Source: a virus
Taxonomy: Duplodnaviria; Caudoviricetes
DNA length: 54,486 nt
Strand: one strand, 5' to 3'
Virus record (IMG/VR): IMGVR_UViG_3300031957_002087
Span: 1 to 54,486 of that record
Shown one piece after another: positions 22 through 47,267 of the stretch; positions within the stretch are counted from its first letter, which is position 1, and every line of letters starts with the position of its first letter. Position numbers and translations under genes: made by a program. A model generated the notes under the pieces. The model was not told the DNA's origin. It searched no databases and saw only the letters and a program-made list of their open reading frames with translations.

Positions 22-318
22 ATGCAGATGGTCGCCGTCAAGCGGCTTGGCCTGACCGCTCTTCAGGCGCGGATATTCTGCCTTCTCGTCCAGCGCGGCG
101 AGGCCAGCCACGAAGTGCTGATCGACGCCAGCTATGACGTCCACTGGCAGGCCATGATGGGCGACACGATGTCGGGCCTGCGCACGGCGGTGAAGCACAT
201 GCGCAAGCGCATCAGGCCGCTCGGCATCGACGTGCAGACGATCTACGCGCTCGGCTACGCCATGTCCGACCAGAACCGCGCCCGCGCCCGGCAGATCATG
301 GAAGGCGCGGCATGCTGA
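22..318 (+). CDS. Winged-helix (Trans_reg_C-like) DNA-binding protein; true start may lie upstream of the window
   Basis: GLTALQARIFCLL...LRTAVKHMRKRIRPLGIDVQTIYALGY matches an OmpR-type wHTH pattern. Confidence 0.65.
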   Translation: MQMVAVKRLGLTALQARIFCLLVQRGEASHEVLIDASYDVHWQAMMGDTMSGLRTAVKHMRKRIRPLGIDVQTIYALGYAMSDQNRARARQIMEGAAC

Positions 319-923
319 TCCTTGGCCTCGATCCATCGCAGAAAACCGGCTGGGCTTTCTACGACACGCGCGCCTCGCTGTCGGCCATTCGCTGCGGCGT
401 CATCAAGGCGGTCGGTGAGAAAGGCCAGTTTGAGGAAATGGCCGGGACGCTCGGTCACGCCCTGATGAAGCTGATCAAGGAACACGGCAAGCCGGACTTC
501 GCGGTCGTAGAGAGGGCGCCGCGGCAATCCGCCGGAACCTACGGCGGGAAAAGGGGCGCGTCAGCCGTCAAGTTCATGGGTGAATCGATTCCCGCCCAAA
601 ATGGCGAAGCCGAAGAAGGCGGAGGCGGGCTCCAATCCACTCTGTCGACAAACCAGATGGCGGCTGCGCTCTGCAGCATCCTTGGCGCCTATCAAATCCC
701 CTACGAAACCATCGCCGCGCAGGGATGGCGCAAGCACGCCTACGGGTTCGGAACCCGGAAGGGATGGCAGCGCAAGGACTGGAAACGACATGCCCGCGAG
801 CAATGCGCCAAGCTGAAAATCACGGCGACCAATGATGACCAGGCGGAGGGATGCTGGATCGCATTCGCGGGTGCCTCCTGCCAGACGCTCAAGCTCATGG
901 AAGCCCGGAGGGCCGCAGCGTGA
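312..923 (+). CDS. RuvC-like Holliday junction resolvase
   Basis: N-terminal MLILGLDPS..TGWA, VVE motif, C-terminal NDDQAEG. Confidence 0.75.
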   Translation: MLILGLDPSQKTGWAFYDTRASLSAIRCGVIKAVGEKGQFEEMAGTLGHALMKLIKEHGKPDFAVVERAPRQSAGTYGGKRGASAVKFMGESIPAQNGEAEEGGGGLQSTLSTNQMAAALCSILGAYQIPYETIAAQGWRKHAYGFGTRKGWQRKDWKRHAREQCAKLKITATNDDQAEGCWIAFAGASCQTLKLMEARRAAA

Positions 924-1459
924 ACTACCCCACATCCGATCGCGCTCGAATACTCTTCGACTATGACCCGGACGTCGGCGTTTTCGTCTGGCGGTGGCGC
1001 CCAAGATTTGAGTTCCGGCACGAGAGAGACTGGAAGGCGTTCTTGAGCCGATATTCAGGGCGAATTGCTGGTCACCTGTGTACCGATGGCTATTGGTACA
1101 TCACCGTGGATCGATGCCGCATCGGCGCACATCGCGTTGCGTGGATGTACTGCTACGGCGAAGAGCCAAACCATGTCGATCACATCAATGGCGACACATC
1201 TGATAACCGCATTGCCAATTTGCGGTCCGTCACACCGATGGAAAACGCGAGGAATCAAGCACGGCGAGTAAACAACAAGACCGGGACGACAGGCGTCTGT
1301 TGGGCCAAAGATGAGGAAAAATGGTCGGCCTATATAAACACTGGCGGCCGACAAGTGCGAATTGGCTATTTCAGGGATTTTGAGGAAGCAGTCGAAGCCC
1401 GCAAGGCAGCGGAAGAAGAGCATGGCTACCACCCCAATCATGGGAGGTCGTCGCTTTGA
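920..1459 (+). CDS. HNH endonuclease with C-terminal AP2-like domain
   Basis: AHRVAW...VDHINGDTSDNRIANLR; NNKTGTTGVCW...W.AYI...IGYF. GTG start at 920 overlaps the upstream stop. Confidence 0.9.
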   Translation: MNYPTSDRARILFDYDPDVGVFVWRWRPRFEFRHERDWKAFLSRYSGRIAGHLCTDGYWYITVDRCRIGAHRVAWMYCYGEEPNHVDHINGDTSDNRIANLRSVTPMENARNQARRVNNKTGTTGVCWAKDEEKWSAYINTGGRQVRIGYFRDFEEAVEARKAAEEEHGYHPNHGRSSL

Positions 1460-2910
1460 ACTTTCACCCCCGCCAGTTCACCATGCCCGACGCCATCGAG
1501 GCGGAATGCGCCTTGCTCGGAGCCATCCTGAGCGACAACAGCCTGTATTGGCAGGTCGCTGGCTATCTGAAGCCGCATCACTTCATGGAGCAGCCTCACC
1601 CGAAGCTATTCGAGATCATCGGGGAGATGCTGGCCGAAAAGCGCGTGGTCAACTGCCTGTCGCTGAAACCATACCTGCCGGCAGACGTAAAGGTCGGGGA
1701 CTTCCCGACGCTCTTTGCCTACCTGGTGCATCTGGAAGCCTATCGGCCGGGCGACTTCGCGGTAGAGGCGACGGCCAGAGCCATACTCGACAACTGGGCG
1801 CAGGTCACGGGCATAGCCCGGATGCAGGACGGCATTTCGATGCTGGTCACGCTGCCGGCCAATACCTCGCCAAGACAGGTCATGGCCGATGTTCAGTCAG
1901 AACTCACCCTGATCGGCAACGAGATCGGGGAAGGCTCGACCGCAGTCACCATGGCGGATGCCATCGGGCAGGCCATGGCGTCGATCGATGATGCGTTCAA
2001 GTTCAAGAAGCGGGCGGGAATCTCCACGGGAATAGAGGCGGTAGACCAGCTAACAGGCCCGTGGGAGCCCGGACAGCAGATCATTATCGGAGGCGGAAGT
2101 AAGCAAGGGAAAAGCGCGTTGGCCATGCAATGCGCGATTGGGCTGGCCGCACACGGAACGGTGTGGGTCTATTCCGGTGAGATGTCGATCAAGCAGGTAG
2201 CCATGCGTGAGATCGCGCGACGGACTGGCATTCCGGTGTCGCGTCAGAAGGAGGGCCGTGTTTCGCAAACCGAGTGGGAGAAACTGCACCGGGTCCAAGA
2301 GGAAGTGCAGCGCCTCCCGATCCTGATCGAGAAGAAGCGGCTCACCCTCGACCAGATACACAGCCGCGCCCGCGAAATCAAAATGAAGCAGGGACTGGCC
2401 GCAATCGTCATCGACTATATCGGGCTATTGGCGTGGGGGAGACACTTCGAGCGGAAAGAAGATTGGGAGAAGTGCCAAATCGCGACGTTGGAATTGAAAC
2501 TGATCTACGAGGATTTGGGTGTCCCCGGCATATCCATCGCTCAGTTGAAGAAGAACACATTCGTTAGCTCTTACACCGGAAGTTTCTCGACCAAGATGCG
2601 CGAGGCGATCAACCGGCGCCCGAAATACACAGACCTCATGGGCGCGGTGGAGCGGGATGCGGATCATGTGCTGATCCCGTTCAATGCCCGGCCGATCATC
2701 GCCACGCTCGAGCCCGAGCAGGGCAGCGACGACTATCTCGTCTGGGAAGACCGGATGCGCGAGCATGAGAACCGCGCCGAGATCATCCTTGCCCTGTCGC
2801 GTGAGCAGCGGTTTCCAGAACGCCGTCAGGTCGAATGGCATGGCGAGACGACGAGCTTTGGCCCGGCCTTCGTAGGCAAGCAGGAATCGCTCCTGCCGGA
2901 GGGCATCTGA
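1456..2910 (+). CDS. dnaB: DnaB-like replicative helicase
   Basis: EAECALLGAIL N-domain, GISTGIEAVD, Walker A GGSKQGKS, SGEMS, Walker B IVIDYIGLL, ERDAD. Confidence 0.9.
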   Translation: MNFHPRQFTMPDAIEAECALLGAILSDNSLYWQVAGYLKPHHFMEQPHPKLFEIIGEMLAEKRVVNCLSLKPYLPADVKVGDFPTLFAYLVHLEAYRPGDFAVEATARAILDNWAQVTGIARMQDGISMLVTLPANTSPRQVMADVQSELTLIGNEIGEGSTAVTMADAIGQAMASIDDAFKFKKRAGISTGIEAVDQLTGPWEPGQQIIIGGGSKQGKSALAMQCAIGLAAHGTVWVYSGEMSIKQVAMREIARRTGIPVSRQKEGRVSQTEWEKLHRVQEEVQRLPILIEKKRLTLDQIHSRAREIKMKQGLAAIVIDYIGLLAWGRHFERKEDWEKCQIATLELKLIYEDLGVPGISIAQLKKNTFVSSYTGSFSTKMREAINRRPKYTDLMGAVERDADHVLIPFNARPIIATLEPEQGSDDYLVWEDRMREHENRAEIILALSREQRFPERRQVEWHGETTSFGPAFVGKQESLLPEGI

Positions 2911-4073: not shown

Positions 4074-4285
4074 TGGACGACAAAAACGCGCTCGCAGAGA
4101 TTAGGCAGATGGTCCGCAGTTTGTCCGACGAACACAAGTCGCTTGGCATCCTGTCATTCCAAAGGAAGCGGGACATTCTCCTTGTCCAGAAAGCACTTGT
4201 AGAACTGCACTACAGGCTTTGCATGAAGGCCGTGGAATCCAACGTTGTCAGGGTCCGCATCCTCTCCAAAGCAGGAAACGACTGA
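4073..4285 (+). CDS. Hypothetical protein
   Basis: AAGGAG RBS, coupled to upstream stop. Confidence 0.55.
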   Translation: MDDKNALAEIRQMVRSLSDEHKSLGILSFQRKRDILLVQKALVELHYRLCMKAVESNVVRVRILSKAGND

Positions 4286-4876
4286 ATGGCTCGTCGCCGC
4301 AAGAAGGACACCAAGGGCCGGAAGGCCGCGCCGATCACGCTGGCGCCGGTCAACCTGTCCGCAAACATCAAGGCCGAGCTCGTCCCGGTCGAGGTGGAGA
4401 ATCCGCTGTGGTCCCGAGACCACGACGGCGACAAGACAAACCAGAGACGCATAGGGGCCATGGTCAACCTCAACGAGAGCGCCATCACCAGGCTTGCAGC
4501 CAAAGGAGCGATCGACAACGCCCAGGCGCGGGCTGCGATCCGCTTCAGGCAACTGTGGGAGAGGATGGGCGGGGCGGGCGCTGGAGCCATGGACTATTCC
4601 CGCACCTTCGTCGACGGCGGCAAGACGCCAGATCCGATCTCCGAACACCAGATGGAGGCCGGCCGGACACTGAAGGCCGCGGAACAGGCCCTGCGCAAGG
4701 AACACGGGCTCTACGCCTACAAGCTGGTCTGCTATATCTGCGGCGAGGGATACTCGATCTATGACCTCACCGAGACCCGCCGGCAGCGGGACACCATGAC
4801 CGACCTGCTGCGCATGTATCTGGACGTTCTGGCCGGTCTGTGGGGCATGGCGAAGCGAGAGAGGAAAAGGGTATAA
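4286..4876 (+). CDS. Putative late transcription regulator (Q/DUF6456-like HTH)
   Basis: GAIDNAQARAAIRFRQLWE...LVCYICGEGYSI..L pattern; last early gene before the packaging module. Confidence 0.55.
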   Translation: MARRRKKDTKGRKAAPITLAPVNLSANIKAELVPVEVENPLWSRDHDGDKTNQRRIGAMVNLNESAITRLAAKGAIDNAQARAAIRFRQLWERMGGAGAGAMDYSRTFVDGGKTPDPISEHQMEAGRTLKAAEQALRKEHGLYAYKLVCYICGEGYSIYDLTETRRQRDTMTDLLRMYLDVLAGLWGMAKRERKRV

Positions 4877-4880
4877 TCAC

Positions 4881-4897
4881 TGTTGCAATTTGCAACA
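4881..4897. promoter_or_regulatory. Palindromic operator overlapping a probable -35 (TTGCAA) of the Y RNA/rsr promoter
   Basis: TGTTGCA-ATT-TGCAACA, a perfect 7-bp inverted repeat about 20 nt upstream of the first Y RNA. Confidence 0.55.
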
Positions 4898-4917
4898 TGG
4901 TCTGCCATATGAGTTTC

Positions 4918-4989
4918 AGCCAATCGTGGTGAAGGTGACGGTTACTTCTTCTGGTGAAACGGACCGTTTCCGCTTGTTCCCGAATGGTT
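4918..4989 (+). ncRNA. Short Y RNA (YrlB-like)
   Basis: 5'/3' ends pair (AGCCA..TCG/CGA..TGGTT). Shares CGTGGTGAA, CGGTTACTYC, ACCG and GTTCCCG with the adjacent YrlA. Upstream of the Ro60 gene. Confidence 0.65.
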
Positions 4990-4992
4990 CAA

Positions 4993-5132
4993 AACCGCAG
5001 GCGTGGTGAAAGAAGTCGGTTACTCCTTGCTAAGGACGAGGTCGCGGGTTCGAGCCCCGTCATCGGGAAACCGATGTAGCTCAGTTGGTAGAGCGCGTAA
5101 AACACCGGGTTCGTCCGTTCCCGCCTGCGGTT
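4993..5132 (+). ncRNA. yrlA: YrlA-type Y RNA (permuted tRNA-like domain on a Ro60-binding stem)
   Basis: Closing stem AACCGCAGGCG/CGCCTGCGGTT. The T arm GCGGG-TTCGAGC-CCCGT precedes a GAAA-capped acceptor stem (CATCGG/CCGATG) and the D arm TAGCTCAGTTGGTAGAGC. Ends 28 nt upstream of the TROVE gene. Confidence 0.9.
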
Positions 5133-5160
5133 CTGACCTTTCGGCGCATAGGAGAAAGAC

Positions 5161-6462
5161 ATGCGCCTGAATATCGCAACTGCCCAGCCCAAGATCTACA
5201 CCGCCGAAGGTGGCCCGGCCAAGCGTATCTCGCCCGAGGCCGCGCTTCGCCGCTCCGTGCTGTCCTGCCTCCTATGGGAGAAGGAGTTCTACGAGGACGG
5301 CAAGGACATCGTTGCCCGCATTTCCGAGAACGCCGCGCAGGTCTCCAAGGAGACGGTCGCCGCGCTCGCGGTCGAGGCGCGCACCGTGCATGGCCTTCGC
5401 CACGCTCCCCTGATCCTGCTGCTCGACCTGATCCGCCGTGGCGGGCCGGGAGTGGCCGATGCCGTCGACGGCACGATCCGCCGCGCCGACGAGCTCGGCG
5501 AACTGGTCGCGCTCTACTGGCGTGATGGCCGCAAGATGCTGCCGCGCCAGATGAAGGCGGGACTGGCCAAGGCGTTCGGCCGCTTCAACGAGTATGCCCT
5601 TGCCAAGTATGACCGCGACGGGCCGGTGAAGCTGCGTGACGTGCTGTTCATGGCGCATCCGAAGCCGAAGGACGAGGACCAGGCCGCGCTGTTCAAGCGC
5701 ATCGCCGAGCGCCAGCTTGCCACCCCCGACACTTGGGAGGTGGCTCTGTCGGCCGGCGCCAGCAAGAAGGAGTCGTTCGAGCGGCTGATCCGTGACGGGA
5801 AGCTCGGCTATCTCGCCCTGCTGCGCAACCTGCGCAACATGGTCGAGGCTGACTGCGACCGCGATCTGATCGCGCAGGCCATCGTTGCCCGCAAGGGTGC
5901 TGATCTGGTCTGGCCTTTCCGCTACGTGGCGGCGGCGCGCGCGGTTCCGCAGTTGGAGCCGTTCATCGACCAGGCGCTTTGCGAGGCCGTAGCCTCCGGG
6001 CCCCGCCTGCAGGGTGTGACGGCCATCCTTGTAGACGTCTCCAGCTCGATGAACTCGCCCCTGTCGGCAAGGTCGGACATGACCCGCATGGACGCGGCTG
6101 CTGCCCTGGCATCGGTCGTGAACGGCGATGTCCGCGTGTTCACGTTCTCGCATCAGGTTGTCGAGGTTCCGCCTCGCCGTGGCATGTCAGGCGTCGACGC
6201 GGTGATCCGCTCGCAGCCGCACGGCTGGACGTATCTCGGCGCCGCCGTCGATGCGGTCAACCGTCAGGTCAAGCATGACCGCCTGATCGTCATCTCCGAT
6301 GAGCAGACGGCGGATCGCGTTCCTGATCCGGTTGCCCGACACGCCTACATGATCAACGTCGCTTCCAACAAGAACGGCGTCGGCTACGGAAGGTGGACCC
6401 ACATCGACGGCTTCTCCGAGGCTGTGATCCGGTTCATCGCGGAATCCGAGAATGACAGGTGA
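5161..6462 (+). CDS. rsr: Ro60/Rsr TROVE-domain RNA-binding protein with vWA domain
   Basis: LLWEKEFYEDG, FNEYALAKY, LRDVLFMAHPKP, TPDTWEVALS, LGYLALLRNLRN, MIDAS DVSSSM, GFSEAVIRFI; AGGAG RBS. Confidence 0.95.
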   Translation: MRLNIATAQPKIYTAEGGPAKRISPEAALRRSVLSCLLWEKEFYEDGKDIVARISENAAQVSKETVAALAVEARTVHGLRHAPLILLLDLIRRGGPGVADAVDGTIRRADELGELVALYWRDGRKMLPRQMKAGLAKAFGRFNEYALAKYDRDGPVKLRDVLFMAHPKPKDEDQAALFKRIAERQLATPDTWEVALSAGASKKESFERLIRDGKLGYLALLRNLRNMVEADCDRDLIAQAIVARKGADLVWPFRYVAAARAVPQLEPFIDQALCEAVASGPRLQGVTAILVDVSSSMNSPLSARSDMTRMDAAAALASVVNGDVRVFTFSHQVVEVPPRRGMSGVDAVIRSQPHGWTYLGAAVDAVNRQVKHDRLIVISDEQTADRVPDPVARHAYMINVASNKNGVGYGRWTHIDGFSEAVIRFIAESENDR

Positions 6463-6661
6463 GCAACTAAAGCAGGCCGGCATTCGGCTGTTTGGTGAGC
6501 GCGGGTGGCAATCCGCGCTCGCTCTGCATTTGGGGATCGATCGCACTCAGATATGGCGCTACGTGGCGAACAACAGTGTTCCCGGGCCGGTTGCCGCTGC
6601 CGTTGAGTGCTGGATAAGGAATGGCCCGCCTCCAATCAGTTCGGGGCCGAAACGATCTTGA
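6452..6661 (+). CDS. Small HTH (XRE-like) regulator
   Basis: WQSALALHLGIDRTQIWRYVANNSVPGPV helix-turn-helix; overlaps the rsr stop. Confidence 0.75.
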   Translation: MTGEQLKQAGIRLFGERGWQSALALHLGIDRTQIWRYVANNSVPGPVAAAVECWIRNGPPPISSGPKRS

Positions 6662-6676
6662 CTTCGCGCGCGTGAT

Positions 6677-6895
6677 ATGGCAGACATTCGCCACTTCCAA
6701 GAATTGCCAGCACGCACAGGCCGCACACAGCGGCCCTTTTCGCGTTCGGAGAGCCCCATGATCGGCCAGACCCTCCGTCACACCAAGTCCCGCATCAAGG
6801 GCGCGGTCGATATGGTCACGGTTCACCCCGACGGTCGGGCCCTGGCGCGCATCAAGGATCACTGGCTGTTCGTCGACGACCTCGAGGCGATCTGA
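6677..6895 (+). CDS. Hypothetical protein (start uncertain, possibly 6758)
   Basis: 3' part has typical codon bias (MIGQTLRHTKSRIKG...). Confidence 0.5.
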   Translation: MADIRHFQELPARTGRTQRPFSRSESPMIGQTLRHTKSRIKGAVDMVTVHPDGRALARIKDHWLFVDDLEAI

Positions 6896-7167
6896 GCCAC
6901 CCCCATTCCCGCTCCCCTAGTCTCCGCGGCTGCTGACGGCCAGCCGGGCACACCAAGTTCCGATGCCGGCGAGGGCAAAAATGGATCGGCCACCTCTCCG
7001 ATCCAGAGCGGGCCGCGAAAGCGGGGTCCATTGACGCTTAATCGGGACAAGCCGCAATTTCACAACCCATGAGTTGAACCCGCCGACATTCATGCTGGCG
7101 AAATGCCCTCTCACACGGGGGTTTTACCCACCAGCGGTTGAAATCGGCCCAAAAACCGAGACAAACG

Positions 7168-7272
7168 ATGTCAAAATTCGTGTGCTACACCAGTTGGTGC
7201 CGTTCAGGCCGCCGCTGCTGCCTCTGCGCGAACCGTAAGCGTATGGCCGGCGCCGCGCGCCGCGTCATCTGA
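7168..7272 (+). CDS. 34-aa Cys/Arg-rich small ORF coupled to terS
   Basis: MSKFVCYTSWCRSGRRCCLCANRKRMAGAARRVI; TGATG overlap with the terS start. Confidence 0.4.
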   Translation: MSKFVCYTSWCRSGRRCCLCANRKRMAGAARRVI

Positions 7273-7826
7273 TGCCAGTCCTTCCAAACCCCAAGCATGA
7301 GGCGTTCGCTCAGGGCCTCGCAAAGGGCCGGACGCAAGCCGAAGCCTATGCGGACGCCGGGTTCAAGCCCAATGACGGCCACGCCGCGCGGCTGGCAGGA
7401 AATGGTATGGTCTCGGCACGGGTCCGCGAGTTGCAGGAAAAGACCGCCGCCATGGCCGAGATCGACATCATGTCGACGCTGCGGGAGATGGTGAGGATCG
7501 GTCACTCCGACCTGCGTAGGGCCTTCGACAAGGACGGCCGGGTGAAGCCGCCGAAGGACTGGGACGACGACTTCGCGGCCGCCGTATCGTCTGTCGAGGC
7601 CACGACCACGGTGAAGGATGACAAGGCCGAGACGGTCTACAAGATCAAGCTGTGGGACAAGAACAGCGCGATCGAGAAGATCGCCAAGCACCTGGGCATG
7701 TTCATTGAGCGGTCCGAGGTGACGGTGACGCATGTCTACCATGAGATGAGCGACGACGAGCTCGACCGCGAATTGCAGAACCAGTTCCTGACCGACAAGA
7801 GCAACGCGGTCCAGACGTCGCACTGA
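7272..7826 (+). CDS. terS: Terminase small subunit
   Basis: LPNPKHEAFAQGLAKG..Q.EAY..AG HTH, KIKLWDKNSAIEKIAKHLGMF; directly upstream of TerL. Confidence 0.9.
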   Translation: MPVLPNPKHEAFAQGLAKGRTQAEAYADAGFKPNDGHAARLAGNGMVSARVRELQEKTAAMAEIDIMSTLREMVRIGHSDLRRAFDKDGRVKPPKDWDDDFAAAVSSVEATTTVKDDKAETVYKIKLWDKNSAIEKIAKHLGMFIERSEVTVTHVYHEMSDDELDRELQNQFLTDKSNAVQTSH

Positions 7827-9691
7827 TGCTCCACTACACGCTTGACGACCTGCGGGCCCTGCCCCGGGAGCGCAAGGAGATCGTCGCACAGATCCTCGCC
7901 GAGAAGGAGCGGCGCCGGGCGCAGCGGATGTTCTTCCGCCTGTTCCCCGACGAAGACACGCGCCAGCCCGACGGTTCGATCATCTATGCCCGGGAGAAAT
8001 ACCCGAAGCACCTCGAGTTCTTCAACGCGAGCGCGAAATACCGCGAGACCTGCTTTCTGGCTGCCAACCGTGTCGGAAAGGCGCTTCGCAACGGCACGCC
8101 GGTCGCAACGCCTGGCGGGTGGGCGTCGATAGAGACGCTGAAGGTCGGCGATGCGGTTGTAGCCGGCGACGGGACCATCACGACCGTGACGGGAGTCTAC
8201 CCCCAGGGCGTCAAGCCGCTCTATCGGCTGACGTTCGATGTGGGCGAAACGATCGACTGCTGCGGGGAGCATCTGTGGAAGTATCAGCATCCGCGGTCGC
8301 GCTATGCATATCGCCGCAGCCACGGTGTGACGGAGGCTAACCCATTCCACGGCGAATGGCGGGTTGCGGACACTGAAACGATCCTGAAGGAAGTCGGATC
8401 GAACCCCATCCCAAGAATGCGAGTGGTCATGCCGACGTCACGGCCTTGGCAGTTGGCAAAGCGACAAGTGCCGGTCGACCCGTATCTGCTTGGCGCTCTG
8501 CTTGGAGACGGAACGCTTAGGGGGGGGGTCAGTTTTGCCACGGTTGACCAAGAGATGGTTGAGACGGTTCGGGGAGCGTTGCCGGCAGGCCTTGCGATTA
8601 AGCACTCCGGCGGTTGTGACTACGGCCTCTGCAAGTCCGAAGGTCGAGTCCGTAACTCCAGGGGCCAGTTCTTTAGCGACCATTCGCTAATCAACGACCT
8701 TCGGCATCTGGGCGCCTTCGGTACACTGGCCTCCGAGAAACACGTGCCTCGGGACTATCTTCTGAACGATGTGCCAACCCGCCTTGGGGTCCTTCAGGGC
8801 CTGATGGATACCGATGGCAGCATCACCAAGACCGGTGCCATGGAGTTTTCTTCGGTATCCACCAGGCTTATCGAGGATGTCAAATTCCTCGTTCACTCCC
8901 TGGGTGGCAAGGCCACGGTCGAAGCCAGGCAGACATACTACACCCACAATGGTGAGCGCAGGGCAGGGCAGCCAAGCTACCGCCTGCACATCCGGCTTAA
9001 CATCTGCCCCTTCCGGCTCACGCGGAAGGCAGAGCGCTGGAACCCGAGACGCAACACGGCAGATCGGGTGCTCCACCGCATCGAGGACGCATCCTCCGGC
9101 GAAGCGACATGCATTTCCGTCGCACATCCCGATCGAACGTTCGTCACGGACCACGGAATCGTCACCCACAACACCTGGGCCGGCGCCTATTCGATGACCT
9201 GCCACCTGACCGGGCTTTATCCTGACTGGTGGACGGGAAGGCGGTTCGATCAGCCGATCAGGGCCTGGGCGGCCGGCAAGACCAACGAGACGACGCGCGA
9301 CATCGTGCAGGCGTCTCTGCTGGGGGAAATATCGTTCGAGGGTCCGCGCAAGATCGTCTCGGGCACTGGAATGGTGCCGGGCCATCTGCTCGGTCAGCCG
9401 ACATGGAAGAAGGGCGTCCCCGATCTCGCCGACACGATCAAGGTCCGGCATGTCTCGGGCAAATGGTCCCGCCTCGGGCTGAAGTCCTACGAGCAGGGTC
9501 GCGGATCGTTCGAAGGCACCGCGCAGCATGTGATCTGGGTCGACGAGGAATGCCCGCTCGACGTCTACGGCGAGTGCCTTATACGCACCGCGACCACCAA
9601 CGGGATCATCGTGCTGACGTTCACGCCGCTCGCCGGTCTCAGTGAGACGGTCATGCAGTTCATGCCGACCGAAGACCGCCCCGGAATCTGA
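7826..9691 (+). CDS. terL: Terminase large subunit, ATPase half (P22 gp2-like), intein-containing
   Basis: AANRVGK|T Walker A, HLTGLYPDWW.G.RF, KSYEQGR..FEG, Walker B IWVDEECP, coupling motif TFTP. Stops shortly after TFTP. Confidence 0.92.
   Translation: MLHYTLDDLRALPRERKEIVAQILAEKERRRAQRMFFRLFPDEDTRQPDGSIIYAREKYPKHLEFFNASAKYRETCFLAANRVGKALRNGTPVATPGGWASIETLKVGDAVVAGDGTITTVTGVYPQGVKPLYRLTFDVGETIDCCGEHLWKYQHPRSRYAYRRSHGVTEANPFHGEWRVADTETILKEVGSNPIPRMRVVMPTSRPWQLAKRQVPVDPYLLGALLGDGTLRGGVSFATVDQEMVETVRGALPAGLAIKHSGGCDYGLCKSEGRVRNSRGQFFSDHSLINDLRHLGAFGTLASEKHVPRDYLLNDVPTRLGVLQGLMDTDGSITKTGAMEFSSVSTRLIEDVKFLVHSLGGKATVEARQTYYTHNGERRAGQPSYRLHIRLNICPFRLTRKAERWNPRRNTADRVLHRIEDASSGEATCISVAHPDRTFVTDHGIVTHNTWAGAYSMTCHLTGLYPDWWTGRRFDQPIRAWAAGKTNETTRDIVQASLLGEISFEGPRKIVSGTGMVPGHLLGQPTWKKGVPDLADTIKVRHVSGKWSRLGLKSYEQGRGSFEGTAQHVIWVDEECPLDVYGECLIRTATTNGIIVLTFTPLAGLSETVMQFMPTEDRPGI
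8081..9172 (+). mobile_element. Class 3 intein with LAGLIDADG endonuclease (364 aa) in the TerL Walker A
   Basis: Ala1 (ALRNGTPV); block B EHLW; block F ATCISV; block G VTHN|T; LAGLIDADG motifs LLGALLGDG and LQGLMDTDGS. Confidence 0.9.
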
Positions 9692-9703
9692 GCGAGGCCA
9701 CGG

Positions 9704-9937
9704 ATGAGCGATCAGCGGGTCAGGGTGACCGGGATATCCGGCATTGTCGCGATGGTCGTGCATGAGGGCCGGCTGATCGTCGCCACCGACGACGGGCTCT
9801 ACCAGGTCATCGGCAGCCAGATGCACCGCATGGAATTGCTCGCCGAGCCGGTCGTGGTCGAGTCCGAGCGGTTCGCCGTTGCCGAGACAAGGCGCCGGGT
9901 TCCGCCCGATCCCCTGCTACCCGAAAGGAAAGCCTGA
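9704..9937 (+). CDS. Hypothetical protein
   Basis: GAGG RBS; TGATG coupling to the next gene. Confidence 0.6.
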   Translation: MSDQRVRVTGISGIVAMVVHEGRLIVATDDGLYQVIGSQMHRMELLAEPVVVESERFAVAETRRRVPPDPLLPERKA

Positions 9938-10236
9938 TGGCAAATCTGTATGTCACACAGTATTCTGGAATTGTCGGGATGCCTGGGGCTGGGCCGCAGT
10001 GTCCGGTTGAGCCGGCGCTGGCGAACGAAGTTGTTTCATTCACCACGTCTGCGGCCTCTGCGGCATTCTCTGACGCTTGCGGTCTGGTCCGGGTCGTGGC
10101 GGACGCCGATTGCCACATTCTCGTCTCCAGCGCCCCAACGGCTACGACAAGCCACATGAAGCTGGTCGCAACCGAGCCATATTTCTTCCAGCCCCGTTCG
10201 TCCGGACTAAAAGTCGCAGCTGTGGCCGCGGCCTGA
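9937..10236 (+). CDS. Small beta-rich phage protein, possible fibre base/adaptor
   Basis: AAGGAA RBS, coupled at both ends; Ala/Ser/Thr/Val-rich. Confidence 0.65.
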   Translation: MANLYVTQYSGIVGMPGAGPQCPVEPALANEVVSFTTSAASAAFSDACGLVRVVADADCHILVSSAPTATTSHMKLVATEPYFFQPRSSGLKVAAVAAA

Positions 10237-12074
10237 TGAACAGGGGTTTTCTCGGCCTCTACAGCCCGCTCGTCGGCAAGTGGGGCTTATTCGGCGCGGC
10301 CACGGCTGCGGGGTCTTATCTCGGCAATGAACCCTCGGGCCTCGCCATCGACTTTACCGAAAACAGCGCACTGGTGCGGGGGCACACGACGAACTTCTCC
10401 GGTCAACCCGTTGACCTCCTGACCTACACCGCGCCTAGCCCCAAGATGACCTACGGGTCCGATGGGGTGCTGAGGTATGCGCGGCATAATCTGCTGACGT
10501 ATTCGGAGGACTTTGCCAACGCAGCGTGGGGGAGCTACAACAACAACACTATTACAACAAACCAGATAGCAAGCCCGACAGGCGCTATTACAGCCGACAA
10601 GATCACAGAAAATTCTGCTACTTCGACGCATCATACTGCGCAAACAGCTGCAATTTTTGCAGTTGGCGCGAGAACTGTATGCTCAGTATACGCCAAGGCT
10701 GGAGAACGAAATTGGCTGTATTTCACTGGGTTTAATGACAGTAATCTTGGGGCATGGTTTAATCTATCGACAGGCTCTGTAGGCACTCGTCAATCGCTCA
10801 ACATTGCGGCATCAATAGAGGATGCTGGTGATGGCTGGTACAGGTGTTCTATCACGTTCGCACCGACGAAGGCTAACCCTTACATTGGTCTGGCTATCGC
10901 ACAGTCTGACAATACGTCTAGCTACCTTGGGGATGGATCGTCTGGGTTGTATATCTGGGGGGCACAAGTTCAGTTAGCTCCGACCAATTCCACCACCTAC
11001 CTCCCGACGACTTCCGCAGCCCGCTACGACCTCCCCTACGACTATGATCCGGTGACGCTTGCGGCCAAGGGTGTGCTGATCGAGGAACAGCGGACGAACC
11101 TGAGAACCTATTCGCAGCAGTTCGATAATGTGGCATGGACAAAGTCCAACACGACCGCGACCGCCGATCAGGCAACTGCACCGGATGGCACGCTCACCGC
11201 CGATCTGCTGGCCGAAAACAGCGCAACATCCGAGCACTATCTCCAAGGGACGGTGTTATCGCTCACGGGCTCTTATGTTGCCTCCGTATACGCGAAGCTC
11301 AAACCGGGGAGCACCCGGTATCTTTACATCGGCGAGCGCAGCACGACAGGTACTCAAGTCATCTTTGATCTTGTTAACGGGACAGCGGCGAGCGGTGGAA
11401 CCATCAGGAATGTCGGGAATGGGTGGTATCGATGCAGCCTCAATGGAATCACGCTGACAGCACAGAACTACGGCTTCAGGATTGGCTTGGATGATGATGG
11501 CAGCGCGGCGAGCTACAACTATTCCGGCGACGGCACGTCAGGGGTCTATATCTGGGGCGCTCAACTCGAAGCCGGTTCCTACGCGACCAGCTACATCCCA
11601 ACGGTTGCCTCACAGGTGACTAGGGCGGCGGATGCGATCAGCCTTGCCGGCTCCATGTTCCCGTGGAGTCAGACGGCAGGAATGTTCGCCGTAGAGACAT
11701 CAAGCATCTCCGCTACTGCGGGCACCAATCACGGTGTCGATCTATTAATTAACTCCAGCAACAAAGTTTCTATACGCAACGGCATGATGCTGATGACCTC
11801 TAGTGGGGCCACGCAGTTCTCGCTTTCGCCCGCGGGGATAGGAGCGTCAACCTCCGTTCAAAAGCGGATAGTTACGTGGGCCGAGAATGACGCGGCAGCG
11901 ACGGTAGATGGGAACAACGTCGCCACAGACACCTCAGTTACCTTGTTCGCGGGGACGCCAGAGCTAAGGCTGTCGGTGGATAACACTGGTTTCTACCCCA
12001 ATGGCCACATCGCCAAATTGAAATACCTCCCCCGCCGCGTCACCAACGCAGAACTACAGGCGATGGCAGCATGA
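10236..12074 (+). CDS. Head-spike/fibre-like protein with duplicated CBM/lectin-like domain (612 aa)
   Basis: Two copies of NL..YS..F.N.AW...D...ENSATS.H...SVYAK...GWYRCS...GDG.SG.YIWGAQ; GVLIEEQRTNL and ATSYIPT...VTRAAD motifs. Confidence 0.65.
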   Translation: MNRGFLGLYSPLVGKWGLFGAATAAGSYLGNEPSGLAIDFTENSALVRGHTTNFSGQPVDLLTYTAPSPKMTYGSDGVLRYARHNLLTYSEDFANAAWGSYNNNTITTNQIASPTGAITADKITENSATSTHHTAQTAAIFAVGARTVCSVYAKAGERNWLYFTGFNDSNLGAWFNLSTGSVGTRQSLNIAASIEDAGDGWYRCSITFAPTKANPYIGLAIAQSDNTSSYLGDGSSGLYIWGAQVQLAPTNSTTYLPTTSAARYDLPYDYDPVTLAAKGVLIEEQRTNLRTYSQQFDNVAWTKSNTTATADQATAPDGTLTADLLAENSATSEHYLQGTVLSLTGSYVASVYAKLKPGSTRYLYIGERSTTGTQVIFDLVNGTAASGGTIRNVGNGWYRCSLNGITLTAQNYGFRIGLDDDGSAASYNYSGDGTSGVYIWGAQLEAGSYATSYIPTVASQVTRAADAISLAGSMFPWSQTAGMFAVETSSISATAGTNHGVDLLINSSNKVSIRNGMMLMTSSGATQFSLSPAGIGASTSVQKRIVTWAENDAAATVDGNNVATDTSVTLFAGTPELRLSVDNTGFYPNGHIAKLKYLPRRVTNAELQAMAA

Positions 12075-12514
12075 TCGAGTATCTGATCTGGTCCCCTGAC
12101 CGTGCAACGTTCATCGCCACGATGGAAGCATTGACCAACCCTGTAACCGGCACTCCGCTGGCTGAAATGGTGGAGGGAGTTCTGACCCCCTCTGCTGGCG
12201 TCATGATTGACGAGATAGGTACAGTCACCAAGACCCCCGCAGTCCTCAACGAAAACGGCGAGGAAGTCACCCCGGCAGTCATCGTAGACGGCCACCATGT
12301 CAACATGGGTGCCTATGGCGAGCTTGCCGCCTTGCTCACGTTTGAAATGCCAACCGAGGGTGACGTATTCGAGCGCACCCGCATCCTTGAACTTCTTGGG
12401 GCCATGGCCTCTCAAGTATCGAAAAAGGGTGAGCCCACTGGTCTTGTGGGCACCAGTGGTGTCAAACTCTACGACCCCTCCGCAGTCACCGTCAGAACGA
12501 GGGTTTGGGCTTAA
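12071..12514 (+). CDS. Hypothetical protein, likely partner/chaperone of the fibre protein
   Basis: ATGA overlap; GEEVTPAVIVDGHHVN motif, ends RVWA. Confidence 0.7.
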   Translation: MIEYLIWSPDRATFIATMEALTNPVTGTPLAEMVEGVLTPSAGVMIDEIGTVTKTPAVLNENGEEVTPAVIVDGHHVNMGAYGELAALLTFEMPTEGDVFERTRILELLGAMASQVSKKGEPTGLVGTSGVKLYDPSAVTVRTRVWA

Positions 12515-12526
12515 CCTAAGGCCGGA

Positions 12527-12772
12527 TCAGACGCCAATATAATCGACCTCGGCGCCTTGGTATTTCTCTTCCATCTTGGTGATCGCCAGTTCGAGTTCCT
12601 CGGCGTTCAGGTTTTCGATCTCGTCGAGGGGATCATCGCCGTCGTAACGGACGAGGACGTCATAGAAATCGGGCTCGGCCGGGCGCTCACGGCTGCTGAG
12701 ATCAACAGCCTCTACAATACGTGGAGGGTAGGTGTCAGCCTGGGGGAATAGTATTCTCCAGCACCGTTTCGG
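12527..12772 (-). pseudogene. Start-less acidic reading frame (gene remnant)
   Basis: Open frame ...RPAEPDFYDVLVRYDGDDPLDEIENLNAEELELAITKMEEKYQGAEVDYIGV* with coding-like codons but no standard start after the upstream TAA. Confidence 0.4.
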
Positions 12773-12946
12773 TTAAGCCGGACGGTTCTGGGGACTACAC
12801 CACACTCAAGGCGGCGGTGCCGCTGCTTAGGAGCGTTGCGACGAGTGTCTTCGAGCTTATCGCATGACGCGCCAGCCGAACTCCTGTCTGAATGTCCACC
12901 GTCCCGCATTTGAGCCGATCTGAACCAACCCTAACGGAGCCTGACA

Positions 12947-13012
12947 ATGGGAGAACGCCGCGTTTACCGTGCGATCTGCGACGTTTGCGGCTCGGGTCTC
13001 GCTGATGGGTGA
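12947..13012 (+). CDS. 21-aa CxxC leader ORF overlapping the start of TerL-C
   Basis: GGAG RBS; MGERRVYRAICDVCGSGLADG*; overlaps ATG 13005. Confidence 0.4.
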   Translation: MGERRVYRAICDVCGSGLADG

Positions 13013-13748
13013 GATAAGCTCGTCCAAATACGTTGTTAGGGCGGGCTGGCGGGATGTGCCGCACATCGACGAAAAGACACAGCGCGAACTCCTGGAGGCA
13101 ACTCCTCCTCACCTTCGTGAAGCACGATCCGAAGGCATCCCGTCGATGGGCGCCGGCGCCATCTACCCGGTGCCGCTATCGGAGATCGAGGTCCAGCCCT
13201 TCGCCATCCCGGCCTATTGGCCGAAGGCTTATGCGCTCGACGTCGGCTGGAACCGCACGGCCTGCATCTGGGGAGCCAAGGAGCCGTCGACCGGCGTGCT
13301 CTACCTCTACGCCGAACACTATCGCGGCGAGGCGGTGCCCGAGGTCCATGCCGCGGCGATCAAGGCGCGTGGTGAGTGGATCCGGGGAGCGATCGATCCG
13401 GCGGCGCGCGGGCGCCAGCAGAAGGACGGCGAGCAGCTTCTGGCGACCTATCAGGGGCAGGGGCTGAAGCTTGTTCCCGCCGCCAACGCGGTCGACGCCG
13501 GGCTCTACGCGGTGTGGAGTCTGCTTGAGATCGGGCGGCTGAAGATTTTCTCGACACTGCAGAACTTCAAGAACGAATACCGGGTCTACCGGCGCGACGA
13601 GAAGGGCAAGGTCGTCAAGGTGAACGATCACCTGATGGACGCCGGCCGCTACCTCGTCATGACCTGGGACAAGATCGCGACGATCCAGAGGCCGGCGAGC
13701 ACGATCCGTTCGGGCCCGGCCATCGCTGACGAAGTGGCAGGGTATTGA
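13005..13748 (+). CDS. terL: Terminase large subunit, lid + RNase H-like nuclease half
   Basis: KYVVRAGWRDVPHI...REARSEGIPSMGAGAIYP, ALDVGWN, IDPA, NDHLMDAGRY; coupled to portal. Confidence 0.9.
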   Translation: MGEISSSKYVVRAGWRDVPHIDEKTQRELLEATPPHLREARSEGIPSMGAGAIYPVPLSEIEVQPFAIPAYWPKAYALDVGWNRTACIWGAKEPSTGVLYLYAEHYRGEAVPEVHAAAIKARGEWIRGAIDPAARGRQQKDGEQLLATYQGQGLKLVPAANAVDAGLYAVWSLLEIGRLKIFSTLQNFKNEYRVYRRDEKGKVVKVNDHLMDAGRYLVMTWDKIATIQRPASTIRSGPAIADEVAGY

Positions 13749-17562: not shown

Positions 17563-18564
17563 ATGTCTGCCAACCTCTCGACCAGCCCTGGGATTTCCCA
17601 GCGCACCACCGTCTATGCCGAGCGCCAGATGCTCAAGCATGCCGGTCCGAGCCTGGTCCTCGAAAAGACCGGGCCACTGATCAAGCCGATGCCGAAGAAC
17701 AAGGGCGTGAACATCAAGTTCCGCCGCCCTGTCCCGTTCGCGGCCTCGACGATCCCGCTGCAGGAAGGCGTCACGCCGTCCTCGACCTCGTTCCGCTACG
17801 AAGACGTCAGCGGTGCGCTCTCCCAGTACGGCATGGTTGCCGAAGTCACCGACGTCATCGAGGATACCCACGAAGACCCGGTGCTCAACGACATCACCAT
17901 GATGCTCGGCGAGAACATCGGCCGCACCCAGGAGGCGCTGAACTACGCTGTCCTCAAGGGTGGCACCAATGCGTTTTTTGCCAACGGTTCGCAGCGCACC
18001 GACGTCAACACCCCCATCTCCCTGAGCAAGCAGCGCGCGGTCGTCCGTGCCCTCGAGGCGCAGAAGGCGATGAAGGTGACGAATGTGCTCGGCGGCTCGC
18101 CGGACTACGCCACCCGTCCCGTGGAAGCCGGCTACATCGCCGTCGGCCACACCGATCTGGACTCCGACATCCGCAACATGCCGGGCTTCGTGCCCTGCGC
18201 GGAATACGGCCAGCGGTCGGTGATCTCGCCCCATGAGATCGGCTCCGTCGAAACCGTCCGCTACATGCTGTCTGCCGATCTGGCAGCGATCGCGGATGCC
18301 GGTGGCGCCAAGGGTTCGATGGTCTCGACCTCGGGCACTTCGGCCGACGTCTACCCGGTCCTGTTCTTCGGCAAGGAAGCCTGGGGCATCGTGCCGCTGC
18401 GCGGTCAGGGCTCGGTTGCGCCCTCGATCATCCCGGTCGGACAGAAGACCAAGGACGATCCGCTCGGCCAGCGTGGCTACGCCGGTTACAAGTTCTGGCA
18501 TCTCGCCCTGATCTTGAACCAGCTTTGGATGGCCCGCTTGGAGTGTGCTTCGACCTCCCTGTAA
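17563..18564 (+). CDS. Major capsid protein (N4-gp56 family)
   Basis: PMPKNKG..IKFRR, PLQEGVTP, L.QYG, HEIGSV..VR, DVYPVL.FG..AWG, DPLGQRGY.G.K. Confidence 0.92.
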   Translation: MSANLSTSPGISQRTTVYAERQMLKHAGPSLVLEKTGPLIKPMPKNKGVNIKFRRPVPFAASTIPLQEGVTPSSTSFRYEDVSGALSQYGMVAEVTDVIEDTHEDPVLNDITMMLGENIGRTQEALNYAVLKGGTNAFFANGSQRTDVNTPISLSKQRAVVRALEAQKAMKVTNVLGGSPDYATRPVEAGYIAVGHTDLDSDIRNMPGFVPCAEYGQRSVISPHEIGSVETVRYMLSADLAAIADAGGAKGSMVSTSGTSADVYPVLFFGKEAWGIVPLRGQGSVAPSIIPVGQKTKDDPLGQRGYAGYKFWHLALILNQLWMARLECASTSL

Positions 18565-18643: not shown

Positions 18644-19252
18644 ATGGCAAAATTCAGGGGTGCAGTGGTTTCCTGCAAGATATGCGGATCGGCATTCAAG
18701 GTTCCGCCGAGCCGCGCCCAAACCGCCGAGTTCTGTTCGATCAAGTGTGCGTCAGTTGGGCGGGGTGAGCGCATCCGAAAAAGGGTGACGCTTTCCTGCG
18801 CCAACTGCGGCACACCATTCGAGGTGCCGGTAAGCCACGCGGATCGTCGGGTCTATTGCAGCAGCAAGTGCAAACACGAGTCAGCCGACTATCTGTCCGC
18901 TCTCTCGGACCGCACGCGCGGCGACAATAACCCGATGTGGTCCGGCGGCTTTGTGGATCACTCTGAAGGCTACATTTATGCGTCGGCCCCAGATCATCCC
19001 TTTGCCTCGAATGGATACGTCCTGGCTCATCGCCTCGTCATGGAGCGATGGCTTCGTAGGACCGACCCGTCTTCCCCATTCCTGATCAGGTTGGGCGGCG
19101 GGCTGTATCTGTCCCCGGAGTTCGTCGTCCATCACAAGGACGAGACCAAGCGAAACAACGAGATCGGCAACTTGGAATGCCTAACCCCGGCCGAGCACAC
19201 CAGGCTGCATAGCCTCGCTCGGCACAATCAAGCGAAAGGAATGTTCCCATGA
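18644..19252 (+). CDS. HNH endonuclease with N-terminal Cys zinc-finger repeats
   Basis: CKICG..F...FCS.KC twice; HP.A..GYVLAHRLVME; VVHHKDE.KRNN...NLE. Confidence 0.88.
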   Translation: MAKFRGAVVSCKICGSAFKVPPSRAQTAEFCSIKCASVGRGERIRKRVTLSCANCGTPFEVPVSHADRRVYCSSKCKHESADYLSALSDRTRGDNNPMWSGGFVDHSEGYIYASAPDHPFASNGYVLAHRLVMERWLRRTDPSSPFLIRLGGGLYLSPEFVVHHKDETKRNNEIGNLECLTPAEHTRLHSLARHNQAKGMFP

Positions 19253-45890: not shown

Positions 45891-46126
<236 letters not shown>

Positions 46127-46889: not shown

Positions 46890-47267
46890 TCAGGACGGCT
46901 TCCGGGCCATCAAGGTGACGTTTGAACTCGCGGGCCTCCGCGCGGTTTGCGATGCGCTCTGCGGTTTGTTTGTCAGCCGTGCGAGTGCTTTCGTGAAGCC
47001 GTCTGCCGGCAACCGTACCGCGATACCACCAGACCTCTCCGCGCTGATAGAGTTTGAGCGGCATGGTTCGGGTTCCTCCAGCAGGATTTCCAGATGCTCT
47101 GGCAGTAACAGCATAGCTTTGCCGAAAACGCGACACGCGCCAAGTTCTCGCGCTCTCCTGCGCAGCGCACGTTCGGAGATACGCACACCCTTATCCGCAA
47201 GCTTTTCCACAGCCTGGGCCGGTGACATGGCTCGGTCAATCACGGTTGGATCTGCGAGCGCCCGCAT
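46890..47267 (-). CDS. Excisionase-like HTH protein overlapping int
   Basis: AAGGAG RBS; SPAQAVEKL..KGVRISERALRRRARELG. Confidence 0.65.
   Translation of the reverse strand: MRALADPTVIDRAMSPAQAVEKLADKGVRISERALRRRARELGACRVFGKAMLLLPEHLEILLEEPEPCRSNSISAERSGGIAVRLPADGFTKALARLTNKPQSASQTARRPASSNVTLMARKPS

Follow-up and report, generated by a model that had tools for sequence, protein, structure and literature searches.

A predicted self-regulated Ro60–Y RNA cassette in a temperate tailed phage

The IMG/VR virus record IMGVR_UViG_3300031957_002087, analysed over its whole length of 54,486 bases and called the window below, carries a compact set of elements between positions 4,881 and 6,661. In order, these are a 17-bp perfect palindrome, two tandem Y RNAs, a gene for a TROVE protein of the Ro60 (Rsr-like) kind, and a small helix-turn-helix (HTH) gene that overlaps the end of the TROVE gene (Table 1). 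The preferred reading, given a probability of about 0.65, is that of an autonomous mobile phage cassette for Ro60 and Y RNAs that encodes a Cro-like autorepressor of its own and whose ribonucleoprotein (RNP) would act on host RNA metabolism. Covariation supports the structures of both RNAs, and across differing phage backbones the HTH gene, the TROVE gene and the palindrome are linked, with the class of the palindrome changing together with the recognition helix of the HTH protein. Ro60–Y RNA particles are conserved from bacteria to humans; to our knowledge, their role for phages is barely known. The original prediction for this locus, made from the letters alone, had named an operator element, two tandem Y RNAs, a full Rsr gene and an overlapping HTH gene, and each of these was recovered.

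The Ro60 protein and the two Y RNAs

The TROVE gene is preceded by an AGGAG ribosome-binding site. Pfam matches its product to TROVE (PF05731) with 47.7 bits against a cut-off of 23, the aligned residues being 186–232 only, and to VWA_2 above and vWA_Ro60 below their respective cut-offs; NCBIfam gives no match for the 433-residue protein. Nearly the whole chain (residues 11–430) matches phrog_850, annotated as 'RNA-binding protein', at 6.4e-50, and residues 14–388 match the sequence of Ro60 from Thermus phage phiLo (PDB 9KOP and 9L5Y) at 4.6e-25. An AlphaFold model drawing on 25 homologues has a pLDDT (predicted local distance difference test) of 85.8 and a pTM (predicted template modeling score) of 0.78. 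When this model is searched with Foldseek, ranks 1–13 are all Ro60 structures, among them 9KOP, 9L5Y, 9NEP, 1YVP, 2NVO, 2I91 and 1YVR, with template modeling (TM) scores of 0.64–0.72; 9KOP stands at the top (E 1e-18, TM 0.68). The metal ion–dependent adhesion site motif of the protein, DVSSS, fits the pattern DxSxS, and its residues D292, S294 and S296 are invariant across the 25 homologues. As modelled, the window protein has the Ro60 fold, in which a ring of HEAT repeats is closed by the vWA domain.

Upstream of this gene, covariance model R1, which describes the hairpin-type unit and was trained on the window and its relatives, finds exactly two units in the window. The first, Y RNA 1, scores 74.2 bits and is a member of the training set. 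The second, Y RNA 2, lies outside the training set and scores 30.4 bits (E 1e-5), with a 68-nt insertion at the site of the tRNA-like domain. A third match, at 14764–14847 on the minus strand (E 0.48), was taken as noise. The original prediction looked to Infernal and the YrlA model for recognition of these RNAs, and this was obtained in part: Rfam YrlA (RF02553) matches positions 5016–5127 with 40.7 bits and an E-value of 1.9e-7 (801-nt search, E-value mode), short of its gathering score of 69. In the alignment to RF02553, the T arm, the middle stem-loop and the D arm align well, and the outer stems fail to align. There is no Rfam match at gathering level anywhere in the window. Moreover, the RF02553 gathering score was reached in none of 16 relatives, and this clade of phage Y RNAs is therefore invisible to routine annotation. 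The alignments and covariance model made here would recover phage Y RNAs that this gathering score misses.

Y RNA 1 is a hairpin with a basal stem (4920–4926 paired with 4981–4987), an internal loop that holds GUGGUGAAGG and CCGCUUGUUCCC, an inner stem ACGG/CCGU and a conserved CGGUUACUUC. Y RNA 2 has the Ro-binding module in common with Y RNA 1 and an outer stem formed by 4993–5003 and 5122–5132. Its insert contains a V hairpin (about 5024–5036), a T arm (5044–5060), an acceptor-like stem-loop (5061–5076) and a D arm (5078–5095), so that the tRNA-like order of T arm, acceptor-like stem-loop, D arm and closing stem to the Ro-binding site is found in this RNA. The TROVE start codon follows 29 nt after the end of Y RNA 2, and both lie on one strand; this is within the limit of 4 kb or less applied to YrlA RNAs. 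Two candidates from this region were rejected. The hairpin before the T arm, considered as a new 'permuted anticodon arm', is the V stem-loop of Chen et al. 2014 (PMC4201824), and a minus-strand open reading frame (ORF) of 67 residues (4989–5192) overlaps the covarying YrlA-type RNA and was not accepted as a gene.

The same two kinds of unit are common to the regions upstream of TROVE in 43 IMG/VR loci encoding relatives of the window protein (designated by L numbers below). Both kinds contain one module, with a 5ʹ strand of G(U/C)GG(U/C)G(A/U)AGG...CGG(U/C)UACUUC and a 3ʹ strand of CCG...CCGCUUGUUCCC. Units picked by eye, on the ground that both module strands were visible, were assembled into alignment A2, which contains 27 hairpin-type units out of 101 motif hits, and alignment A3, which contains 24 tRNA-like units. 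RNAalifold places 16 pairs in A2, 15 of them with compensatory changes; 91.7% of the paired cells are paired, compared with 67.6% in shuffles (0 of 500 as high) and 36–50% when the partner is slid by 1–3 columns. A3 has 32 pairs, and compensatory changes occur in 26 of these. Its paired cells reach 93.8% (68.3% in shuffles, again 0 of 500 as high; 37–50% when slid). By element, the T arm of A3 has five pairs, 100% paired, the acceptor-like stem has six pairs, all compensatory, the D arm has four pairs, and the closing helices have 17 pairs, of which 15 are compensatory.

The number of Y units per relative ranges from one to five or six by motif count; in some, among them L020/L021 and L036, all units are of the hairpin type. 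In L034, L035, L036 and L041, at about 5360–5600, GGYUACUUC core motifs (1 mismatch) also occur just downstream of TROVE, an observation at the level of the motif only. Near the 5ʹ end of YrlA RNAs, Chen et al. 2014 (PMC4201824) describe the Ro-binding motif GNCGAAN0-1G. The corresponding motifs in the window read GGUGAAAG and GGUGAAGG, with U where the published motif has C. At the same aligned position, the relatives L014 and L036 have GGCGAAGG, and L008 has GCCGAAG.

The helix-turn-helix protein and its candidate operator

The ATG of the HTH gene lies 11 nt inside the TROVE gene, overlapping its stop codon (ATGACAGGTGA). The best family hint for the protein is YdaS_toxin (PF15943), which scores 22.5 bits against a Pfam cut-off of 30 and is thus sub-threshold; among 11 members of the HTH family, nine match YdaS_toxin at E ≤ 0.1 (best E 4.7e-5) and two match P22_Cro (PF14549). 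Weak profile matches in the PDB are to Cro-like XPH1 and Pfl6 Cro. The predicted structure has four helices (pLDDT 87.9), and its weak Foldseek neighbours (TM 0.5–0.6) include HipB, 434 Cro, N15 Cro, controller proteins and Aca1. Modelled as a homodimer, the protein has a median of 0.44, compared with 0.00 for the best control; the dimer runs have at least 96% contact agreement and a partner pLDDT of at least 74. The mark for a dimer is reached by 20 of 30 proteins solved as one-chain pairs and by 1 of 23 solved as single chains, and the pass of the HTH protein may reflect likeness to solved Cro-type dimers. The predicted interface is the conserved helix 4 (residues 44–60), which leaves the recognition helix free.

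A tblastn search with the window HTH protein finds a homologue directly after TROVE in 11 of the 43 loci, mostly overlapping the stop codon; L004, where the homologue lies 500 nt downstream of TROVE, is an exception. A profile of the 11 HTH sequences adds L031, L037 and L039 and brings the count to 14 of 43. None of the 43 loci has a match to any of the seven other proteins neighbouring the cassette in the window, terS and terL among them. From the opposite side, searching IMG/VR with the HTH alignment gave 20 loci, 11 of them on contigs not among the earlier ones, and TROVE is directly upstream in 18. The two exceptions are L060, where the HTH gene is at the contig start, and L063, a marginal match; linkage is not judgeable in either.

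The site of the cassette varies: it is found next to the integrase (L008, L009), between terL and portal (L011), near the endolysin (L002) and near head genes (L015, L020). In GTDB, the HTH gene lies beside a TROVE gene in a Mesorhizobium metagenome-assembled genome (MAG) and beside a TROVE remnant in a Rhodospirillales chromosome. In the latter (L065:3598–4180), only the last ~130 TROVE residues precede an HTH homologue of 57% identity, and this copy is probably a decayed cassette. Among deposited phages, the HTH search gives one weak match, in Mesorhizobium phage Cp1R7A-A1 (42% identity, E 4e-4). That this distant relative is not beside TROVE, together with the YdaS/Cro-like family hint, would suit a general phage regulator, such as a Cro-type lysis/lysogeny switch, or an antitoxin-like protein that stands beside Ro60 by chance. 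Such a role is highly improbable: TROVE is directly upstream in nearly all of the HTH-profile loci, most of these have the start of the HTH gene overlapping the TROVE stop, the pair recurs at unrelated genome positions, and the single copy of the palindrome in the window lies at the cassette.

That palindrome, TGTTGCAATTTGCAACA, is the sole match in the window at up to three mismatches, compared with 0.13 expected. Counted in the loci of the first scan, within 700 nt upstream and with L016 left out, GTTGCA-N3-TGCAAC (at most two mismatches) is present upstream of the Y RNAs in 8 of 14 loci with the HTH gene and in 0 of 28 loci without it. L016 has a class-III palindrome, described below, and its contig ends 9 nt after the TROVE match. 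A second count was made free of any motif, as perfect inverted repeats with arms of at least 6, a gap of 1–5 and a position 30–80 nt before the Y core. Such repeats are found in 20 of 23 HTH-positive rows and in 3 of 25 HTH-negative rows, and perfect repeats centred on GCA-N3-TGC in 16 of 23 and 0 of 25, respectively. Additionally, the distance from the palindrome to the first Y RNA core is 53–59 nt in all loci with enough upstream sequence. In the prophage of a Mesorhizobium MAG (L064:600–4200), three GTTGCA-N3-TGCAAC palindromes (628, 1809 and 2209) each lie ~57 nt before a Y core, an arrangement in which a single TROVE–HTH pair would follow several Y RNA transcription units, each under an operator.

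The class of the palindrome changes together with the HTH recognition helix, and three operator classes match three helix classes. The helix DRTQ[IV]WRY pairs with GTTGCA-N3-TGCAAC; DTSTIRRW (L020, L021, L059) pairs with CG(T/C)GCA-N3-TGCACG, the class II site being CGTGCAAAATGCACG; and NISTVRRW (L037/L039) pairs with CGCGCA-AAA-TGCGCG, the class III site being CGCGCAAAATGCGCG. Furthermore, DGSSVRRW (L031) pairs with GTGCA-TAT-TGCAC. The palindromes of L031 and L037/L039 were noticed while these loci were still counted as HTH-negative; divergent HTH genes immediately behind TROVE came to light there afterwards, in the profile search (E 1.4e-13 and 1.5e-10). Two HTH-negative loci, L005 and L006, are nested in the main HTH clade and both are without an intact palindrome; although these are only two cases, they fit a joint loss of gene and site. 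On this comparative evidence, the HTH protein would bind the palindrome, and the claim that the cassette travels with its own regulator gains support. An alternative assignment of the palindrome, to the DUF6456-like protein encoded upstream of the cassette, was rejected: that protein is absent from 43 of 43 loci, and the palindrome recurs.

The promoter proposed in the original prediction is placed by a position conserved in 17 aligned upstream regions, with TTGCAA hexamers resembling a −35 element within the palindrome and a −10-like stretch, CATATGAG, ending ~5 nt before Y RNA 1; a scan of 4200–7400 for promoters with the E. coli consensus found none. Two terminator-like sites occur in the same interval, both on the minus strand and no more than expected. 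In the class of L020/L059, a TTGACA-17 nt-GATAAG/GATATA promoter brackets the palindrome. These positions bear on the sign of regulation. The HTH protein could be an activator, or a dual switch like the C proteins of restriction–modification systems that activates at low and represses at high concentration, instead of a simple autorepressor. This is unlikely, although the window-class palindrome does overlap the −35-like TTGCAA, a strong consensus promoter is not detectable there, and restriction–modification controller proteins are among the nearest structural neighbours (TM ~0.5). In L020/L021/L059 and in L016/L037, by contrast, the palindrome sits between a good −35 (TTGACA or CTTGCA) and a GATA-type −10, so that bound protein would block RNA polymerase.

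Proposed mode of action and its alternatives

In the proposed mechanism, the cassette would be expressed from one sigma-70-type promoter overlapped by the palindromic operator, with a start that the conserved geometry would place a few bases before 4920. A single transcript would carry, in order, Y RNA 1, Y RNA 2, the Ro60 gene (TROVE and vWA) and the translationally coupled HTH gene. Ro60 would bind the module common to both RNAs (5ʹ GUGGUGAAGG...CGGUUACUUC, 3ʹ CCG...CCGCUUGUUCCC) and form Ro60–Y RNPs. The HTH dimer on the palindrome would cap transcription of the cassette, much as anti-CRISPR-associated (Aca) proteins do for anti-CRISPR (Acr) operons and C proteins for restriction–modification operons. 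The RNP would then work on host RNA metabolism on behalf of the phage, independently of any phage-encoded ligase. Most likely, the tRNA-like Y RNA would tether Ro60 to a host 3ʹ–5ʹ exoribonuclease (PNPase) or to another tRNA-binding factor. Throughout this scheme, we infer the transcription start, the processing, the binding of Ro60 to the RNAs, the binding of the HTH protein to the operator and its sign, and the cellular target.

The original prediction had the RNP recruit host enzymes of RNA repair or decay, or shield against tRNA-cleaving defences; such roles would follow by analogy with the literature. Guidance on function comes from two phages. The Ro60 and both Yrl RNAs of phiLo are reported to bind host PNPase and to attenuate it in vitro (Nucleic Acids Res 2025, PMC12135203), and capture of host PNPase via Y RNA would, by analogy, be the best-supported role for the RNP of the window. 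In Escherichia phage Bas63, the Ro60-like protein gp130 is described in the PhageMaP preprint (PMC11482910) as countering the Ppl defence system; this is the sole genetic phenotype found for a phage Ro60, and it makes a counter-defence role plausible.

Several points weigh against this reading of the cassette. The 433-residue protein is ~70–100 residues shorter than the solved Ro60s, and its partner binding may therefore differ. Both RNAs of the window have GGUGAA in place of the published GNCGAA, and the match to RF02553 lies below the gathering score. The HTH protein reaches no curated family cut-off, its model has no Foldseek match at E ≤ 0.001 (best E 0.4), and the scan with the E. coli promoter consensus came back empty. 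An activator would also fit the window class, whose palindrome covers the −35 region. L025 yielded no convincing operator, and L004, L048, L050 and L059 have an imperfect repeat. In a quick maximum-likelihood tree, in which L031 and L037 are labelled HTH-negative, the HTH-bearing TROVE genes cluster; the co-occurrence of HTH gene and palindrome therefore reflects shared ancestry in part, and the counts given above are not independent events. The rows also include near-duplicates (L020/L021, L037/L039, L056/L058, L017/L018, L022/L023, L026/L027 and L043/L044). The functional analogies are drawn from the Ro60 of phiLo, at only 26% identity in structural alignment, and from the Ro60-like protein of Bas63. 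Finally, the 10 runs listed for 4850–6700 are all DNA or of unknown type, with no RNA run among them.

A different beneficiary is possible, though less probable than the phage itself: as lysogenic-conversion cargo, the cassette would be expressed from the prophage for the good of the host cell and not of the lytic cycle, with the autorepressor holding a steady low level. What the host gains might be the exclusion of other phages, or Ro60-type quality control of RNA during UV, oxidative or starvation stress; the introduction of the phiLo paper (PMC12135203) refers to such stress roles for bacterial Rsr. The phage of the window is temperate and encodes an integrase, three related records are classed as proviruses, and relatives occur in the Mesorhizobium MAG and the Rhodospirillales chromosome. 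In L008 and L009, the cassette adjoins the integrase, a typical cargo position, and its own promoter and autorepressor would make expression independent of the phage cascade. However, the cassettes of the window and of L011 are embedded in the packaging/late region, and HTH-less relatives are found in lytic Xanthomonas phages and in jumbo Caulobacter/Brevundimonas phages. Moreover, the two experimental reports on phage Ro60 (phiLo, PMC12135203; Bas63, PMC11482910) point to action during infection.

Within action during infection, the tRNA-like domain of Y RNA 2 raises the question of a decoy. Protected by Ro60, the tRNA-like Y RNA would bait or inhibit host anticodon nucleases or other tRNA-sensing immune proteins, which corresponds to the second role named in the original prediction. 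In favour, the YrlA-type RNA has retained T, D and acceptor-like arms that covary, together with a V hairpin with a 7-nt loop, the layout of operator and small HTH gene is that of anti-CRISPR operons (Aca1 is a weak structural neighbour, TM 0.58), TROVE lies inside tRNA gene arrays in L032 and L012, and a Ro60-like phage protein is reported to counter a defence system (PMC11482910). Nevertheless, this is decidedly unlikely. Ppl, the system countered in Bas63, is proposed in that preprint to degrade DNA and not tRNA. Additionally, Y RNA 1 is without a tRNA-like domain and L020/L021 and L036 have hairpin-type units only, and a decoy therefore cannot be the general function.

A broader extension of the preferred reading, that of a self-regulated Ro60–Y RNA cassette, is doubtful. 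The operator and the terminal mini-repressor would mark an anti-defence island of the Acr/Aca design, and Ro60–Y RNPs would be a widespread, horizontally traded phage weapon against bacterial immunity directed at RNA or tRNA. If this were true, the co-varying HTH/operator pairs would give a handle for finding further RNA-based counter-defence cargo in alphaproteobacterial phages, as Aca genes did for anti-CRISPRs. Apart from this extension, the cassette is small and self-contained, occurs in many phage backbones and has a predicted control circuit of one protein and one site; it should therefore be easy to rebuild and test.

The phage and the comparison with known systems

The record, which is linear and ~60% complete by CheckV, belongs to a temperate, tailed phage according to PHROG and Pfam scans. 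The cassette has the replication block on one side and terS on the other (Table 1).

Table 1. Features of the cassette and of the surrounding phage genome; positions are those of the window.
Feature	Position	Strand	Basis
17-bp perfect palindrome TGTTGCAATTTGCAACA, proposed operator of the HTH protein	4881-4897	.	
Putative promoter	4883-4914	+	Conserved position across 17 aligned upstream regions
Y RNA 1, hairpin type (YrlB-like)	4917-4991	+	Covariance model R1 and covariation
Y RNA 2, YrlA type with permuted tRNA-like domain	4994-5132	+	Rfam YrlA, R1, covariation
TROVE/Ro60 (Rsr-like) gene, 433 aa, C-terminal vWA domain	5161-6462	+	Pfam, PHROG, PDB, model
Cro/YdaS-like helix-turn-helix gene, 69 aa	6452-6661	+	ORF, model, linkage
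RuvC-like resolvase	312-923		PHROG/Pfam scans
DnaB-like helicase	1456-2910		PHROG/Pfam scans
terS	7272-7826		Pfam PF03592, 1.5e-15
Intein-bearing terL	from 7826		PHROG/Pfam scans
Portal	13745-16135		PHROG/Pfam scans
Major head protein	17563-18564		PHROG/Pfam scans
Endolysin	42053-42805		PHROG/Pfam scans
Integrase	46063-47136	minus	PHROG/Pfam scans
Erf, exonuclease and NinB genes	50047-52289	minus	PHROG/Pfam scans

The original prediction put the cassette between a late regulator and terS. The terS side of this placement stands by its Pfam family. The supposed late regulator, ORF 4286–4876, belongs to phrog_21451, of unknown function, and has no Pfam match; it resembles DUF6456 clusters in the ESM Atlas (feature scores of 0.94–0.95, structural TM 0.59). 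DUF6456 is an annotation carried by homologues of GafA, reported to activate the Rhodobacter gene transfer agent. The ORF may thus be a DUF6456/GafA-like activator of phage late genes, which is a lead only. ARAGORN finds neither tRNA nor tmRNA in the window.

The large terminase, spread over 7826–13748, is unusual: the ATPase half (7826–9691) bears an intein with Hint and LAGLIDADG domains, and the nuclease half (Terminase_6C) is a separate ORF (12969–13748) ~3.3 kb downstream of the ATPase half. Between the halves lie a 665-residue ORF (10077–12074), whose only match, to TraH, is sub-threshold, and a 147-residue ORF; Rfam gives no intron match within 9600–13000. An ORF of 2541 residues (33644–41269) is similar to giant phage proteins whose function is unknown (phrog_14770, 4.5e-132), and it also matches a family of virion structural proteins. 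HNH endonucleases are encoded twice, at 18644–19252, directly after the major head protein gene, and at 53947–54423.

Absence of RtcB and RtcR from the locus was a central element of the original prediction. The absence itself holds, with no match to RtcB (PF01139), RtcA (PF01137), RtcR (PF06956) or RNA_ligase families in the ~60% complete record. As a distinguishing feature, it does not: RtcB is found in just 1 of the 43 related virus records, which is 1 of 14 among those at least 90% complete, and the complete HTH-bearing records G001, G007 and G008 are without it. The sole carrier among the 43 is the 185-kb record L012. In that record, as in L032, the TROVE gene lies within a tRNA gene array (14 tRNA matches in the 9.3-kb locus of L032; a tRNA and a tmRNA-model match in L012). 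The description of phage-encoded Ro60 as known from a few phages was likewise an understatement. A TROVE relative is encoded in 93 of 50,697 deposited phage records, from phages of Xanthomonas, Brevundimonas, Caulobacter, Rhizobium, Streptomyces and Gordonia and from crAss-like phages, among others. Chen et al. 2014 (PMC4201824) report, for 254 bacterial species and 22 phages, YrlA-like RNAs that share a strand with Ro60 and lie at most 4 kb from it, as well as two Y RNAs upstream of rsr in M. smegmatis that derive from one precursor. The phiLo paper (PMC12135203) cites earlier phage cases, including Caulobacter phage CcrColossus, the TROVE protein of which is 55% identical to that of the window. 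Very abundant RNAs upstream of an Rsr-like gene appear in a Listeria phage study. Phage Ro60 and Y RNAs without RtcB or RtcR are thus the normal phage state and already published.

The closest known system is that of phiLo, in which two Y-RNA-like genes immediately precede the phage Ro60 gene in the same orientation and the phage has no PNPase of its own (9KOP, 9L5Y). Its Ro60 is both the best sequence match and the best structural match of the window protein. Nonetheless, identity in the structural alignment is 26%, the phiLo protein has 500 residues where that of the window has 433, and a linked HTH gene or operator goes unmentioned in the cited text of PMC12135203. With the bacterial and phage YrlA and YrlB RNAs (RF02553; described in PMC4201824), the window shares the T arm, acceptor-like stem-loop, D arm and V hairpin, and also a second, shorter hairpin Y RNA. 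The window clade differs in its 5ʹ motif, GGUGAA(A/G)G as opposed to GNCGAAN0-1G, and in the extra invariant CGGUUACUUC.

As described for Salmonella, the rsr-yrlBA-rtcBA operon (RtcR/sigma-54, PMC7790460) likewise joins Ro60 and two Y RNAs in one transcription unit under a dedicated regulator. Unlike this operon, the window is without RtcB, RtcA and RtcR, and its Y RNAs precede the Ro60 gene. Moreover, its predicted regulator, a 69-residue HTH protein, has its gene at the 3ʹ end, and the palindrome lies in a promoter region of the sigma-70 type. Bas63 gp130 is similar in being a phage Ro60-like protein encoded beside tRNA-like genes; the relevant passage of PMC11482910, however, mentions no HTH partner.

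In layout, the cassette also resembles anti-CRISPR–Aca and restriction–modification C-protein operons, with an inverted repeat in the promoter, a cargo gene, a terminal gene for a small, predicted dimeric HTH protein, and mobility as a unit. In these operons, a very small repressor, its gene placed at the end, restrains a strong promoter on mobile cargo. Aca1 (7C0G) and C.Esp1396I are weak structural neighbours of the window HTH protein. There is, however, no significant sequence or Foldseek similarity (best E 0.4), and the cargo is an RNP and not an inhibitor protein; the likeness lies in the design and does not imply membership. Full-text literature searches found no HTH gene or operator attached to a phage or bacterial Ro60–Y RNA locus. 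The built-in HTH autoregulator with its co-varying operators thus appears to be a new part of a known phage cargo.

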